A stretch of DNA of 64,000 nucleotides, taken from positions 1,458,615-1,522,614 of the forward strand of contig CP074575.1 in NCBI GenBank assembly GCA_018394315.1. Direction: 5' to 3'. Numbering within the stretch: position 1 is the stretch's first letter; each line of letters opens with the position of its first letter. Of this stretch, positions 42,001 through 48,000 are shown in pieces. Source of the DNA: Mycoplasmatota bacterium (lineage in GTDB: Bacteria; Bacillota_I; Bacilli_A; MAG-NZ). A program made the position numbers.

Positions 42001-45000
42001 TCACTTGACATTGCTAGGTACAACTTAGTTCAAAACGATAAATTGTTTTCAAAAATGATTGATTTGAGTAAGTATGCAAATGAAGAGTTGAACAAGATTG
42101 ATGGAATTAGCTGTATAAAGAAGGATATCGAAAATGGTGATTCTATCTTTGAATATGATATAACTAAACTAGTTATAAATGTAACTGAGTTAGGATTAAC
42201 AGGATTTAGTGTTTATGATATTATGAAAGAAGAATATCAAATCCAGCTAGAATTAGGAGAAACCAATGTAGTTCTAGCAATTGTAAGCATTGGAGACTCT
42301 AAGAAAAGCATTAATTTATTGTTAGATGCATTTAATCGTTTAGCTAAAAAGTATAAAAAACACCAAACAATAAAGGAAGTCAACTTTAAGATTAATATCC
42401 CAAAAATGCTTATGTCACCTAGAGAGGCATTCTTTGCTAATACAACTCTCAAAAATATTGATGATTGCCTAGGAGAGATCGCAGGCGACTCTATAATGAT
42501 ATATCCTCCTGGAATACCTTTGGTAATACCTGGAGAGGTAATCTCACAAGTAATTATTGATGATTATAAATTTTTTAACACAGAAGGAAATGTAGTTTTA
42601 GGGTCTCAAGAAAATTATGGAGAGATAAAATTAAAAGTTATTGCTAGAAAGAAGGTCTAATATGGATAATAAATTAGAATTATGGTATACAGAAAATTGG
42701 ACAGAAGATTGTAAGTTTTCAATTAAAGTAAATAAACATTTACACTCAGAAAAAACAGAATATCAACAAATTGACTTCTTTGAATCCGATACATTTGGCA
42801 CATTCTTCACACTAGATGGTTTAATGATGGTAAATGAGAAGGATGAATTTGTTTATCATGATATGATTTCTCATATTCCACTAGCAGTTAATCCCAATAT
42901 CCAAAGGGTATTAATTATTGGTGGCGGTGATGGTGGTACGGCTCGTGAAATATCAAGATACAGTCACATTGAGAAAATTGATATGGTTGAGATTGATGAA
43001 AGGGTTGTTAGATTATCTCAGCAATATTTGCCTATTACTGCAAGTAAATTAGATAATGATATACGAACTAATCTATACTTTGAAGATGGATTAGCATTCG
43101 TTAAAAATGCTGAAAGTAATTATTATGACTTGATTTTAGTAGATTCCACGGATCCAGTCGGACCAGGAGAGGGATTATTTACATTTGATTTTTATAGTAA
43201 CTGTTATAGAGCACTAAGCGAAGACGGAATTCTAATTAATCAACATGAATCTCCTTATTTTGATATATATGCTAATGAGATGATGAGAGCACATACTAAA
43301 ATAAAAGAAACATTCCCAATTGCAAAAGTATATCAATTTCATCAACCAACTTATCCATCTGGACATTGGTTATTTGGATTTGCTTCAAAGAAACTTGATC
43401 CAATTGAAGATCATAAACCTGATATTTGGGAGAAATTTAATATAAAAACAAAATATTATAATTCGGGGTTACATAAGGCATGTTTCAGTCTTCCAACGTT
43501 CGTTAAGGAAAAATTAGAAGATGAAGGTGAATAAACTAACATTCATTAGCTGTGATGCTAATTATAGCGATTCAAACATTGTCATATTTGGAGCACCATA
43601 TGATGGTACTACATCATTTAGACCAGGAACAAGATTTGCACCAAATATGATAAGAATTGACTCTGAGGGGTTAGAAACTTATTCTCCTTATTTAGATATC
43701 GACATTGATGATAAGAAGATTATAGATATTGGCGATATTGAATTTCCTTTTGGAAATTTGAAAAAAACTCTAGATACTATATATAAAACGAGTAGTAGAA
43801 TATTAAACGACAATAAGAAACCATTAATGATTGGCGGAGAGCACCTAGTTACTCTACCCCAAGTATCTGCTGTTGTTGAGAAATATTCTGATTTACACAT
43901 TATACATCTTGATGCACATGCAGATTTAAGAAATGATTACATCGGAGAATCACTTTCTCATGCTACTGTAATGAGAAGAATATTTGATTTAGTAGGAAAG
44001 AACAAAATATATCAATATGGAATTAGATCTGGAACGAAAGAGGAATTCGCATTTGCTAGTAATAACACTATAATGAATAAGTTTATTATTACTAACTTAA
44101 AAGATGATTTAAAGAAACTAAAGGATAAATCTTTATACTTAACTATTGATTTAGATTTATTAGATCCAAGTATATTTCCAGGTACAGGAACACCTGAACC
44201 AGGAGGAATTACTTTTAATGAATTATTAGAAGCTTTACAAGCATTAAAGGGAATGAACATCGTTGGTTGTGATGTAGTAGAATTATCACCACATTATGAT
44301 AATTCTGGTGTTTCAACTGCAGTAGCTAGTAAAGTAATAAGGGAAATACTCTGTTTGTTATAGAAAGCATGGAAGTGTAGGATGTTTAAAGGCATAAGCC
44401 CTTGTCTTGAAAACATTCTTTCTTTTATAGATATCTTGTTTTGTCTTATACTCAAGAATTCAGTGAATAGTTCTTGAGTTTTAAATTATGTAGCGAATTG
44501 TTTTGGTAAAATATTACTTCATATACTTTAATTAAGGTCGGTTTTGTATTATAATGTAGTAGAAATATTTATAAGATTAGTGGGGAAATGAGAGTATGAA
44601 GTTTAGATATGGGAAAGTTGCTTTAGTAGTGGGTGCATCTTCAGGTGTTGGCAAAGAGTGTGCAAACTACTTACTAGAAAGTGGATATAAGGTATATGGG
44701 ACAAGTAGAAAAGCTACTTTTGATAATTCATCAAATATGCTTTCAATGATTCCACTAGATGTAACGGATGAAAGTACAATTAAAGAAGCGGTAGACTACA
44801 TTCTAGAAAAAGAGGGAGGTATAGGAGTTCTTATAAATTGCCCTGGGTACGGCTTAGCAGGAGCTATAGAAGATACATCTATAGAAGAAGCCAAGAGAGT
44901 ATTTGATACTAATTTTTTTGGAATAATGAACGTATGTAATTTTGTTTTACCACACATGCGTAGACAAAGAAAAGGATTGATCATTAATATTAGCTCAGTA

Positions 45001-48000
45001 GCTGGATTTATATCTCTACCTTTTCAGTCAATGTACAGTGCAAGTAAATATGCTCTTGAATCATTAACGGAATCTTATCGCATGGAAGTATCAAACTCTG
45101 GAGTTAAGTTTTCATTAATAGAACCAGGAGATATGAAAACTAATTTTTTAAGAGAGTATGTAATTAAATCTGAAAATTCCGATTACAAGGAAAGATGTGA
45201 TCATGCTGTTAATAAGATGATTAAAGATGAACAAAATGGTCCTGAACCAAGAGTTGTTATTAAAGAATTAAAGCATATTCTAAAAAAGAAAAATCCACCG
45301 ATAAGAAGAATAGTTGGTCTGGATTATAAAATGATAGGGATACTGAAAAAATTATTACCTGCAAAGTTTGTTGAATTTGTAATTATTAAAATGTATGGGG
45401 GGAATTAATGATGGATATATTTAAGAAGGCTTATGAGTATAATGCACCTGAACAGGTAAAAAAGCTTGGATTATACCCATTTTTTAAAGAGTTTGATTCA
45501 GGAGAGGGTTGTGAATTAACGTTAGACGGTAAGAAAATCTTTATGATGGGTTCTAATAACTACTTAGGGTTAGCTCAAGATCAGAGAGTTAAAGAGGCCT
45601 CAATAAACGCAATTAAGCAATATGGTACTGGTTGTTCTGGTTCTAGATTTATGAACGGGACCTTAAAACTACATATTAAATTGGAAGAAAAATTAGCTAA
45701 GTTCTTGAATAAGGATGCTTGTATAGCTTTTAGTACAGGATTTCAAGCGAATTTAGGGATAATTCCTTCTGTTGCTTCTAAAGGAGATTACATCATTGGA
45801 GATAGAGCTAATCATGCATCAATTGTTGAAGGGTGTAGATTAAGTTTCGCAAAATTAGCTAAATATAAGCACAGTGACATGGAGGATTTAGAAAGAATTC
45901 TCAAATCTATTCCAGAAGATAAGGGTAAACTAATCATTACTGATGGAGTTTTTAGTATGGAAGGTGAAATCTGTAAATTACCTGAAATTGTAGAGTTAGC
46001 TAAAAAATATAATGCTCGAGTAATGGTTGATGACGCACATGGTGTTGGTGTTATTGGACCTAATGGTAGAGGAACTGCTGCCTATTTTGATTTAGAGGAC
46101 GAAGTTGACTTAATTGTAGGTACTTTTAGTAAGTCGTTTGCAAGTTTAGGAGGATTTGTTGTTGGATCAAAAGAAGTAATGAATCATGCAATGCATGTTG
46201 CAAGATCATTTATTTTCAGTGCATCAATTCCGCCATCAAATGCAGCAGCAGCACTAGAAGCTATTAAAATTTTAGAAGAAGAACCTGAAAGAATAACAAG
46301 AGTGAATGAGAATGCTAAATTCTTTAAAGAAGGTCTTGAAGCAATTGGCTTAGAATGTGGGGAAACTGAAACTCCGATAATACCAATAATGATCTATGAT
46401 GACATGAAGACATTTTTTGTAACAAAAAGTTTATTAGACAATGGTGTATACGTTAACCCAGTTATACCACCAGCAGTGCCAGAAGGTCAATCATTACTAA
46501 GAACAAGTGTTACTGCAACTCAAACTAAAGAACAATTGGCAAAAATTTTAGATATAATAAAAATGGTATTTACTGAAACTGAATAGATTATTTAAAGTAA
46601 ATATTATAAAACGGATTTCTTTCTGTAACTAGAAAGTTGAATCCTTTTTTTATTTTATACTTTATTTCCAATTTTTAGCAATGAGTATAGTTAAAGCACA
46701 AACTATTGAAAAAATTATTTATTTTAATATAATTAATAATTAGAGTTAACTAGTTACTAAATTAAATCTTAGGGGGAAATATGAGTAAAAAAATTACATT
46801 CACTAAAATTCGTAGAAGAAATCAATTTATAACTTTTTTAGTATTCTTTGTACTTGTTATCATACTTTTTGTTAGTATGTTAGTAAATCCATGGTATAAA
46901 ATACCGGTTAATTGGTACTTTATTCCTGTTTTAGGATTGGTTGGATCAATATTAATTCCTAGATATATGGGAAGACATTACTGTGGTCAATATTGTCCAA
47001 GTGGGTTTATATCTGACAGTATGAATCATAAAAATAGAGCGGGAAAAATCATAAAGAGTGGTATTTTTAAACCCATCTTCTTCGCGCTTTTTATTGCTTT
47101 ATTTGTTGTAGCATTTTTACCTTGGGACATGGGATTACCAGTATCTATGACAGAAACGTACTGGGATGGTGTAATTAATAAATTGTGGATACTATGGGTT
47201 ATATGTCCATTTATAATAGCATTACCATTAATCGTTATATTTGGATTAACTAAAGGTGGTAGAACTTGGTGTAATTATATGTGCCCATGGGCTACTATCG
47301 GTGTAGCATTAGGGAAACAACAATTAGAGGTGAACGACAATTGTAACGATTGTGGAAGCTGTTTGAAGGTATGTTCACAGCCCGAGGTTATTGAACCAGT
47401 ACTTGGAACTGGTGGAAAAATTGGAGCGAACTGCCTAATTTGTTTAAAATGTGTTGATGCTTGTCCAAATAATGCTATACAATATATTGAAAAGAAATAA
47501 ATAGATATAATAAAAGGGTTCTAAACCCTTTTATTTTTTTCTCTTCTGATCTTTTGTAAATTAAGTCTTTTAATATGATAGAAATTTAAAACGATATCTG
47601 CCATTTCTTCTGGAGATTTTTTCATATTATCTTCAATCCACTTCTTAAGGATGTACCAAAGTCCCCCTGCTGAAAAATGATAGACGTAGTCCGTTGTCTC
47701 TCCACCTTCATAAAAAATCAAGTTTTCGAATCTATAATCTTTTCCCATAGAATATAGATATTTAAGATGAGACTCCAAAATCATAGAAAAGACATTATTT
47801 TGTACTAAGTTCCTAACAAATTCTTCCTTTTCTATCCAAAAGTAAAAATAAGTAACAAGTAATTCATATAAAGTGATAGCTTCTTTTTTAAAGATTAAAT
47901 TAATGAATTCTTTATAGAAGTCATCAATATAGTGTTTTAATATATCTTCCTTAGTGTGGAAATTTCTGTATACTGTTTGTCTGACTAAACCAGATCTTTC

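Follow-up and report, generated by a model that had tools for sequence, protein, structure and literature searches.

A putative serine palmitoyltransferase and 3-ketosphinganine reductase gene pair in a spore-forming bacterium of a Mollicutes-like class

Sphingolipids of bacteria are regarded as belonging to the outer membrane of Gram-negative groups, and those of the gut are credited to Bacteroidales; to our knowledge, Acholeplasma-like bacteria and Clostridia are not usually counted among the sphingolipid makers. Plackett, Smith and Mayberry are said to have shown chemically in 1970 that Acholeplasma (Haploplasma) axanthum S743 contains a sphingolipid made de novo. The reductase BT_0972 of Bacteroides thetaiotaomicron (KdsR) is not clustered with spt (PMC9278070), and its in vivo role is called unclear, partly because the gene lies apart from spt (PMC11087976). 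Spt-like genes are predicted in 40 phyla (PMC11334938, with a supplementary list of 38), and a review lists 'Mycoplasma spp.: sphingophospholipid' (PMC10626005, citing Olsen and Jantzen 2001).

The locus described here lies in a window of 64,000 nucleotides, the whole stretch of DNA that was analysed, from the genome (93.6% complete) of a Mycoplasmatota bacterium. This organism is a spore-former, as the survey's finding had stated, with spo0A and spoIVA passing their profile cut-offs. The two adjacent genes of that finding were confirmed as open reading frames (Table 1), the TAA stop of the reductase gene overlapping the ATG of the synthase gene by one base, and both enzymes are of known kinds. 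Upstream lies the polyamine operon speD-speA-speE-speB (genes named by NCBIfam), parted from the pair by a terminator-like hairpin. A promoter scan listed no full site in the putative promoter region and gave no excess over shuffled sequence (10 against a mean of 12.0), and a terminator scan did not list the inverted repeat that follows the pair. No bCerS, CerR, dedicated ACP or AMP-binding synthetase was found at the locus, in line with the earlier statement that the pair has no ceramide synthase, dedicated ACP or acyl-ACP synthetase beside it. No third gene recurs across the compared loci: the flanking DegV, polyamine and 4Fe-4S genes are not retained as neighbours, and neither a ceramide synthase nor a head-group enzyme or transporter accompanies the pair consistently.

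Table 1. Features of the gene pair and its flanks, in window coordinates
Feature	Position	Strand	Details
Terminator-like hairpin	44450..44479	+	11-pair stem, then T run
Putative own promoter/RBS region	44550..44590	+	TATAAT 44550-44555, GGGGA 44582-44586; suggested by sequence reading
KdsR-like short-chain reductase P0001	44596..45408	+	270 aa; GASSGVG 13-19, SRK 37-39, Ser134, Tyr147-x3-Lys151
SPT-type PLP alpha-oxoamine synthase P0002	45408..46586	+	392 aa; assigned on residues, trees, structure model; key residues Asn50, Gly78-Ser79, His136, Thr239-Phe-Ser-Lys242, Ala272, Arg365
Imperfect A+T-rich inverted repeat, possible terminator	46593..46664	+	25-nt arms, 80% complementary

The NCBIfam ranking agrees with the earlier assignment of the pair to the KDSR and SPT families, with both proteins below the curated cut-offs. 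P0002 is best matched by SerpalmtaseCFB (NF047600) with 540.3 bits against a cut-off of 640 (next family 424.4); SPT relatives beside bCerS-like genes likewise stay below this cut-off (485, 559 and 567 bits). Its best solved structure is the SPT of Sphingobacterium multivorum (SmSPT; 427.6 bits, next 292.2), and it is 49.6% and 51.7% identical to the SPT orthologues of Bacteroides finegoldii and Parabacteroides distasonis. The structure model of P0002 (pLDDT 89) has 8GUH as its best Foldseek match, with a TM score of 0.96; the model of an Acholeplasmataceae orthologue (pLDDT 69.5) was left out of the structural comparison.

The substrate and active-site residues of SmSPT, as named in PMC10196870, served as reference for mapping. 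P0002 contains the PLP-lysine motif GTFSKS and the His/Asp/His/Arg catalytic set of an SPT (His136, His211, Thr239, Lys242 and Arg365), and, as expected of an SPT, Ala272 at PLP-Lys+30 and Gly78-Ser79 in the substrate loop correspond to SmSPT Ala274 and Gly80-Ser81. In SmSPT numbering, the identical residues comprise Tyr25, Phe28, Asn52, Gly80, Ser81, Phe83, Asn85, Phe114, His138, Ser185, His213, Thr241, Ser243, Lys244, Ser273, Ala274 and Phe338, and the side-chain contacts of the SmSPT serine complex are all retained. Four pocket positions are changed (Ala79>Ser, Tyr27>Phe, Leu84>Met and Met271>Ile), and Ser53 is replaced by Asn besides. Every one of the 189 rows with 370 bits or more has both Ser79 and Ala272; of the 61 lower rows, 10 have the former and 2 the latter.

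In quick trees computed without bootstrap, P0002 falls into an SPT clade (support 99 under LG+G4, 95 under a mixture model) apart from Kbl, BioF and CFAT, which includes the Bacteroidales SPTs and SPTs beside bCerS/CerR-like genes. In the mixture-model tree, 12 Bacteroidia SPT rows form their own clade (support 100), with P0002 outside it in a 37-row Bacillota clade that also contains one row titled Bacteroidales. The term 'Bacteroidota-type' used in the survey is loose, each of the two proteins belonging to a Bacillota-wide clade of its own beside the Bacteroidia enzymes and not within them. A recent transfer from Bacteroidota is likewise unsupported: the synthases are a separate Bacillota clade, and GC3 of both genes lies at the 41st–45th percentile of the genome. 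The second alpha-oxoamine synthase of the genome, described before as Kbl-like and about 46% identical to P0002, is indeed 45.9% identical, groups with Kbl (support 98) and lies beside a threonine dehydrogenase homologue.

P0001 scores best in NCBIfam on KdsR (NF049977), where its 260.6 bits stay below the cut-off of 400; the next family gives 248.3. The protein is 37.9% identical to a KdsR protein above the NCBIfam cut-off, a level (35–38%) that unrelated plasmid SDRs also reach, and its GxxxGxG motif and Ser134-Tyr147-Lys151 triad are features that mark all classical SDRs. In a tree in which a protein above the KdsR cut-off stood in for the absent BT_0972, a reductase clade of 48 rows (support 98) is the sister of the KdsR clade, and the joint clade of 56 rows, which may separate them from generic PRK06179/PRK06182 SDRs, has a support of 86. 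All but two of these 56 rows adjoin an SPT, and one of the exceptions adjoins a truncated one. Among 71 Bacteroidales genomes, seven of the eight best KdsR matches adjoin an SPT; at one of these loci a bCerS-like gene lies upstream. In one genus of the class, 10 of 14 genomes score on the KdsR model with proteins of a different SDR clade, and the synthase was not found in three genomes tested; a KdsR family search of five genomes whose SPT relatives have no SDR neighbour gave nothing at 1e-35.

The class sample comprised 399 scored genomes, this one included; the phylum sample for the genome holds only the same Mollicutes-like class, and no Clostridia. The earlier estimate of about 80 genomes with an SPT-type homologue is matched by 81 of 399 at 50–86% identity (the genome itself excepted), set off, as described, from a second tier at 41–49%. 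The pair also recurs as a unit: the reductase adjoins the synthase at 88 of 100 class loci and at all 10 loci from the Clostridia phylum, and the pairing holds in four different arrangements of loci. In one family the reductase lacks synthase adjacency in 10 of 12 loci, and an all-genome scan placed a reductase within 600 nt of the synthase in only 22 of 80 loci. The pair is common in Acholeplasma-like bacteria, near-universal in several genera (28/28, 10/10 and 8/8) and scattered in Clostridia. An orthologue named from H. axanthum is 52% identical and lies inside the Acholeplasmataceae branch. The cassette sites said to flank the pair in the sister were found as repeat copies on both sides on a sister-genus contig; the pair is mobile in that genus. 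No cassette sites surround the pair in the window, where the repeat model matches nothing from 21.3 kb to the end.

Residues, trees and gene order back the sphingoid-base half of the survey's alternative between sphingoid bases and capnine. Family placement, active-site residues and gene coupling can be read from the sequences. The pair is likely a two-step long-chain-base module leading from serine and acyl-ACP via 3-ketosphinganine to sphinganine. We infer serine as substrate, the chain length, NADPH and the acyl-ACP donor. The synthase would join L-serine to a long-chain acyl thioester with loss of CO2, and the reductase would reduce the 3-keto group of the resulting 3-ketosphinganine with NADPH. 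The order, with reduction ahead of N-acylation, would be that of eukaryotes and B. thetaiotaomicron and not that of Caulobacter, and the product would reside in the single membrane. The genome has an ACP (one match) and AccA/D, FabH, FabF-like and PlsX homologues; an acyl-CoA synthetase (PF00501) was not found in it.

For N-acylation, the profiles used derive from genes next to SPTs rather than from characterised enzymes. A bCerS-like gene of this genome (C1:2140044-2141159, E 5.5e-53) may be a candidate N-acyltransferase; it is a divergent copy on a long branch and also occurs in a pair-less family member, and CerR-like matches are weak (best E 5.6e-33). Most SPT-bearing genomes of the class have a bCerS-like GNAT that is unlinked to the pair. 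Such genes do not track the pair: they occur in 61 of the 81 SPT-type genomes, but also in 66 others, and in the family of the closest relatives in one of 12.

The same chemistry with alanine or glycine, giving 1-deoxy- or 1-deoxymethyl-sphinganine-type amino alcohols, is improbable. At high concentration Ala, Gly and homoserine serve as substrates of SmSPT, whose side-chain recognition is largely water-mediated, and the synthase clade is distinct from every characterised SPT; because the serine hydroxyl in SmSPT is held largely via the PLP phosphate and waters (PMC10196870, for both), pocket residues cannot prove a serine substrate. Against alanine and glycine stand the retained serine-complex contacts, and no neighbour hints at another substrate. 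A slightly lower probability is given to a non-membrane amino alcohol built on a short or medium acyl chain (a signal or small metabolite), or to the free base as end product. The mobility in the sister genus, the variable neighbourhood and the rarity of bCerS-like matches among the closest relatives would suit it, whereas the acyl-pocket residues Tyr25, Phe28, Phe83 and Phe338 of SmSPT are retained, a Bacteroidales operon once includes a bCerS-like gene, and the presence throughout whole genera resembles core membrane metabolism.

That P0002 is a second BioF- or Kbl-type housekeeping enzyme and the SDR beside it unrelated is very unlikely, and this reading was rejected. Many orthologues are annotated '8-amino-7-oxononanoate synthase' and the bioF model TIGR00858 gives 410, but the NCBIfam cut-offs are missed (410<426, 424<535 and 405<460), the Kbl-like gene adjoining tdh is a separate one, and at position 272 Kbl and BioF carry Asn or Thr, both falling outside the synthase clade; the SDR pairing survives rearrangement, and bioA, bioD, bioW and bioC were not found in the genome (bioY was). 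Least credible is the capnine half of the survey's alternative, a cysteate acyl-ACP transferase with a 3-ketocapnine reductase, which shares fold and reaction type and could draw on low-similarity cfat/kcr homologues in 12–14% of Firmicutes genomes (PMC11211663), but was rejected because P0002 has Ala272 at PLP-Lys+30 where SulA has its distinguishing Lys281 (PMC9304779), cysteate transferases lie in a separate clade (10 Bacteroidia proteins with that Lys, support 100), and the SulA and CFAT structures score 216 and 240 bits versus 428 for SPT.

Returning to the sphingoid-base module, we lean towards a wider reading in which a single old Bacillota-wide spt–kdsR lineage, cassette-mobile in a tRNA-anchored array, would give eukaryote-order de novo sphingolipids to single-membrane or wall-less carriers. 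These would be most free-living Acholeplasmataceae and several families related to them, together with spore-formers such as the present one; a few percent of Clostridia would belong here too, with cultured species and gut Christensenellales among them. The claim that de novo sphingolipids are new for Bacillota stands for the genes, the operon and their breadth, Clostridia included, and not for the idea of such a lipid in this class, already listed for 'Mycoplasma'. Novelty is limited because the class is Mollicutes-like, reviews hold that entry and H. axanthum has an orthologue; as the survey noted, many other genomes carry the pair as well. In the accessible literature, no link of spt/kdsR genes to the 'Mycoplasma'/axanthum sphingophospholipid was found, its passages on axanthum dealing with steryl glycosides, and no spt/kdsR assignment or de novo sphingolipid synthesis for Clostridia or Acholeplasmatales, with the proviso that Stankeviciute 2022 and the supplement of PMC11334938 may list Spt-like genes of Firmicutes. 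Should the pair have its predicted function, single-membrane and wall-less bacteria also make sphingolipids, the old Acholeplasma lipid would gain its missing genes, and unrecognised producers would be added to gut and sediment communities. The operon bears on the question, raised in PMC11087976, of whether making sphingolipids in vivo involves KdsR, and would be the first gene-order evidence for KdsR as in vivo partner of SPT. Carriers cultured according to their database names (H. axanthum, Clostridium thermarum and Caldicoprobacter species) permit a direct test.

Compared with known systems, P0002 resembles the SPTs of S. multivorum (3A2B, 8GUH) and Bacteroidales (NF047600) as a soluble single-chain PLP enzyme sharing GTFSKS, the GSRFxNGT loop, Ala at Lys+30 and 49–52% identity. 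It differs in its sub-cut-off score, its separate clade and its one-membrane host, and it is operonic with the reductase, whereas the SPTs of B. finegoldii and P. distasonis adjoin a divergent lipid-kinase gene. BT_0972 (PMC9278070) and P0001 are both classical SDRs of the same length with GxxxGxG and YxxxK, in sister clades at only about 38% identity; the pair genes overlap here, whereas BT_0972 lies apart from spt. The Caulobacter-type Spt-bCerS-CerR system shares the first step, its reductase belonging to another family than the SDR found here; of the 80 loci of the all-genome scan, 15 have a bCerS-like GNAT next to an SPT relative, all 15 with non-Bacillota titles. The proteobacterial SPT cluster has a dedicated ACP and an acyl-CoA synthetase, unlike this locus. 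SulA/CFAT (7U7H, 28EH) probably also use acyl-ACP, and match P0002 with 32% identity in structure. The sphingophospholipid of 'Mycoplasma spp.' comes from the same bacterial class as this genome.

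The survey's finding had named two adjacent genes best matched by KdsR (3-ketosphinganine reductase; BT_0972 in Bacteroides thetaiotaomicron) and by serine palmitoyltransferase (SPT). Both open reading frames are present, the stop codon of the SDR gene overlapping the start of the PLP-enzyme gene, and NCBIfam ranks both families first: KdsR for the SDR (260.6 bits, below the cut-off of 400), and the CFB-type SPT for the PLP enzyme, P0002 (540.3 bits, below the cut-off of 640). We consider it likely that the pair functions like SPT and KdsR, giving a serine-derived base of the sphinganine type.

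Features of the gene pair and of the repeat array (window positions; C1, positions on the whole contig)
Feature	Position	Strand	Remarks
SDR, 270 aa	44596-45408	+	ORF in window
PLP enzyme (P0002), 392 aa	45408-46586	+	ORF in window
Terminator-like hairpin	44450-44479		between upstream polyamine operon and pair
Repeat matches	323-21300 and upstream of window (C1:1420370-1479907)	same strand	27 matches, 100-160 bp
Tyrosine integrase	20129-21085		array end; PF00589
tRNA-Arg(TCT)	21175-21251		array end

Among solved structures, P0002 matches the SPT of Sphingobacterium multivorum (SmSPT) best (427.6 bits), followed by T. thermophilus AOS (292), Kbl (262), and the cysteate acyl-ACP transferases CFAT (240) and SulA (216 bits). 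The closest match of its predicted model (pLDDT 89) is 8GUH, with a TM of 0.96 and an rmsd of 1.6, where TM is about 0.9 against all alpha-oxoamine synthases. SmSPT residues named by Ikushiro 2023 (PMC10196870) were mapped onto P0002 through the structure-match alignment. Asn52, Gly80, Ser81, Phe83, Asn85, Phe114, His138, Ser185, His213, Thr241, Ser243, Lys244, Ser273 and Ala274 (SmSPT numbers) are identical, as are the pocket residues Tyr25, Phe28 and Phe338; Ala79, Tyr27, Leu84, Met271 and Ser53 are replaced. Lys281, 30 residues past the PLP lysine, marks cysteate transferases, and alanine is the SPT state (Radka 2022, PMC9304779). This position is occupied by Ala272 in P0002, by Thr in the Kbl-like paralogue that lies beside a threonine dehydrogenase homologue in this genome, by Asn in Kbl-type enzymes, and by Lys in ten Bacteroidia proteins. 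When 250 distinct synthase rows were divided by their score to P0002 (189 high, 61 low), Ser79 and Ala272 were each found in 189/189 high rows, and in 10/61 and 2/61 low rows, respectively. Although 50% identity to SPT is close to the 46% to the paralogue, a concern of the survey, these residues tell the two apart.

Two quick trees, both without bootstrap, place the synthase. In a 97-row tree, with rows picked by clustering from the 250, P0002 belongs to a 63-row clade (support 99) with Bacteroidales SPTs and enzymes neighbouring genes similar to bCerS or CerR, proteins of the Caulobacter-type ceramide pathway; the paralogue joins Kbl (98), and the Lys-bearing Bacteroidia proteins are separate (100). 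The SPT clade recurs (95) in a 70-row tree under a mixture model, in which the Bacillota enzymes form one clade (37 rows, support 87; 36 rows, 96) and do not fall within that of the Bacteroidia (12 rows, 100). A BioF role for P0002 is unlikely, since the genome yielded bioY and no match for bioA, bioD, bioW or bioC.

The reductase is 37.9% identical to a KdsR protein that scores above the NCBIfam cut-off; unrelated plasmid SDRs reach 35-38%, and identity alone would be weak ground for calling the SDR a KdsR. In an 82-row tree, with a KdsR protein above the cut-off in place of BT_0972, Bacillota reductases encoded next to an SPT make up one clade of 48 rows (98), and its sister group of eight rows contains the KdsR proteins of Bacteroidales (56 rows jointly, support 86). 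This grouping is separate from generic PRK06179/06182-type SDRs; one SPT-adjacent SDR (L261) lies outside it. The pair had been described as Bacteroidota-type, a label that fits only loosely, since the synthase lies outside the Bacteroidia clade. The two genes represent sister clades to, and not members of, the two NCBIfam equivalogs or the Bacteroidia clade.

An SPT-type gene occurs in 81/399 scored genomes of the class, this one counted, in agreement with the roughly 80 of the survey. Within family f12, 72/151 genomes have it, and the genera are nearly all-or-none (28/28, 10/10, 8/8 and 6/6 versus 0/29, 0/19 and 0/14). We inspected 100 loci of the class, a single one for each genome, drawn from the highest-ranking scan matches and, to widen the range of families, by hand (47 from f12). 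A reductase lies within 400 nt of the synthase in 88, which bears out its earlier description as the direct neighbour; related genomes are not independent, and the locus figures are therefore counts, not statistics. The reductase is upstream of the synthase in families f1 and f4 and downstream in the others; of the 12 loci without a near reductase, ten are among the 12 loci of f9, one is in f17 and one is at a contig end. In a Clostridia-centred sample, the gene was found in 10/281 genomes (9/280 minus the centre), with an adjacent SDR in 10/10 carriers, on the opposite strand in five. Synthases of 60-64% identity occur in named cultured Clostridia. Among the best 80 loci of an all-genome scan, only 22 have an SDR close by; those without one include a large Christensenella-like group, and 15 of the 80, with non-Bacillota titles, carry a bCerS-like gene instead. 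In Christensenella-like Clostridia (L010, L017, L021, L023, L024, L026, L040-L046 and similar loci), the SPT-type synthase occupies a conserved core-genome position, and inspection of the neighbouring genes revealed no SDR. In a record titled Candidatus Kapaibacterium (L077:1189-3594), an SPT-type synthase is fused to a bCerS-like GNAT in a protein of 801 aa. Priestia megaterium plasmids (L218:10001-11215) carry an SPT-clade synthase, 53% identical and with Ala at Lys+30, that falls outside the Bacillota synthase clade; methyltransferase and acyltransferase genes are arranged divergently to it, and a retron is close by.

BT_0972 is not clustered with spt (Lee 2022, PMC9278070), and its in vivo role has been described as unclear (Uchendu 2024, PMC11087976). 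The KdsR model matched in 17 genomes among 71 Bacteroidales genomes, and seven of the eight best matches are directly behind an SPT. One Bacteroidales locus (L369:2577-5634) has the order bCerS-like, spt, kdsR; six others (L363-L368) have spt-kdsR. The spt-kdsR operon provides context evidence on the in vivo role of KdsR.

With regard to later steps, the acyl donor would be acyl-ACP, because no AMP-binding enzyme was found in the genome (93.6% complete), in which ACP, AccA/D, FabH, a FabF-like gene and PlsX are present. A profile built from six SPT-adjacent GNAT proteins has a single match in this genome, a bCerS-like gene at C1:2140044-2141159 (E 5.5e-53), which forms a long branch and is also found in the family member G061, where the only synthase found is of the Kbl tier. 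This divergent bCerS/YghO-like GNAT overlaps a DUF819 membrane gene (L213:8861-11160; C1:2138860-2141159), an arrangement kept in G061 and a further genome, G087. Across the class, 127/400 genomes have a bCerS-like gene; 61 of these belong to the 81 SPT-type genomes and the remaining 66 do not. In f4, the family of the closest relatives, it is found in 1/12. Those 66 genomes (L212; others in genus g49 and families f17, f18 and f7) have no SPT-type match, and their GNATs either have another function or acylate scavenged bases. The common class type groups (98) with the gene that adjoins spt-kdsR in Bacteroidales. Together with the distribution, this makes ceramide a plausible product in many carriers of the pair, and a possible one in this genome.

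The slot behind speB is variable: in two further genomes of this family, G061 and G002, speB is followed by genes other than the pair, and G061 has the 4Fe-4S gene 4 kb farther on. The cassette sites noted around the pair of the sister genus are real: repeat copies flank that pair on both sides, and the same repeat recurs 27 times on one strand of this genome, 26 of them within a ~53-kb array (C1:1420370-1473627). The repeat begins with the reverse complement of a tRNA T-arm, and the 27th match is the tRNA-Arg itself. Between successive copies there is mostly a single small gene or a couple of them, encoding lipoproteins or repeated paralogues. The array is a tRNA-anchored cassette or accretion array; the sister genus carries its spt pair as a cassette of this kind. 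No repeat flanks were found beside the pair here, and both its genes have ordinary GC3. Two Bacteroidales-titled genomes (L068:7058-9969 and L370:2623-5566) have a Bacillota-type pair behind mdh, which suggests transfer into Bacteroidales.

The description of the host as a spore-former fits with spo0A and spoIVA, both above their cut-offs. The title of a record from the same genus reads 'uncultured Mollicutes bacterium', f12 includes an Acholeplasmataceae-titled record, and a phylum-wide sample yielded members of the host class only; the organism thus belongs to a Mollicutes-like branch of Bacillota sensu lato, and neither to Bacilli proper nor to Clostridia. Plackett, Smith and Mayberry in 1970 and Mayberry in 1973 reportedly found dihydrosphingosine, ceramide and ceramide phosphorylglycerol in strain S743, later Acholeplasma (Haploplasma) axanthum. 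A review entry on 'Mycoplasma' sphingophospholipid presumably traces to that work. The entry, in a 2023 review (PMC10626005), reads 'Mycoplasma spp.: sphingophospholipid', with Olsen and Jantzen 2001 as its source. P0233, recovered in a database search with 14 aligned f12 synthases and named by NCBI from H. axanthum, is 52% identical to P0002, has the motif GVSGSRFLNGT and Ala at Lys+30, and falls within the f12 branch; the reductase is directly downstream in 46/47 f12 loci.

Spt-like genes have been extended to 40 phyla, Firmicutes being unnamed in the main text (Ding 2024, PMC11334938), and the taxon names looked for are absent from Harrison 2018 (PMC6148460). No paper that credits Clostridia or Acholeplasmatales with these genes emerged from a literature search covering few subscription papers. 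The reading as SPT and KdsR is cheap to test in cultured strains. For B. thetaiotaomicron, a preprint (10.1101/2023.05.23.541633) names sphinganine as the principal intermediate. The pathway chemistry is known, and the new side is the little-described operon and its host range.
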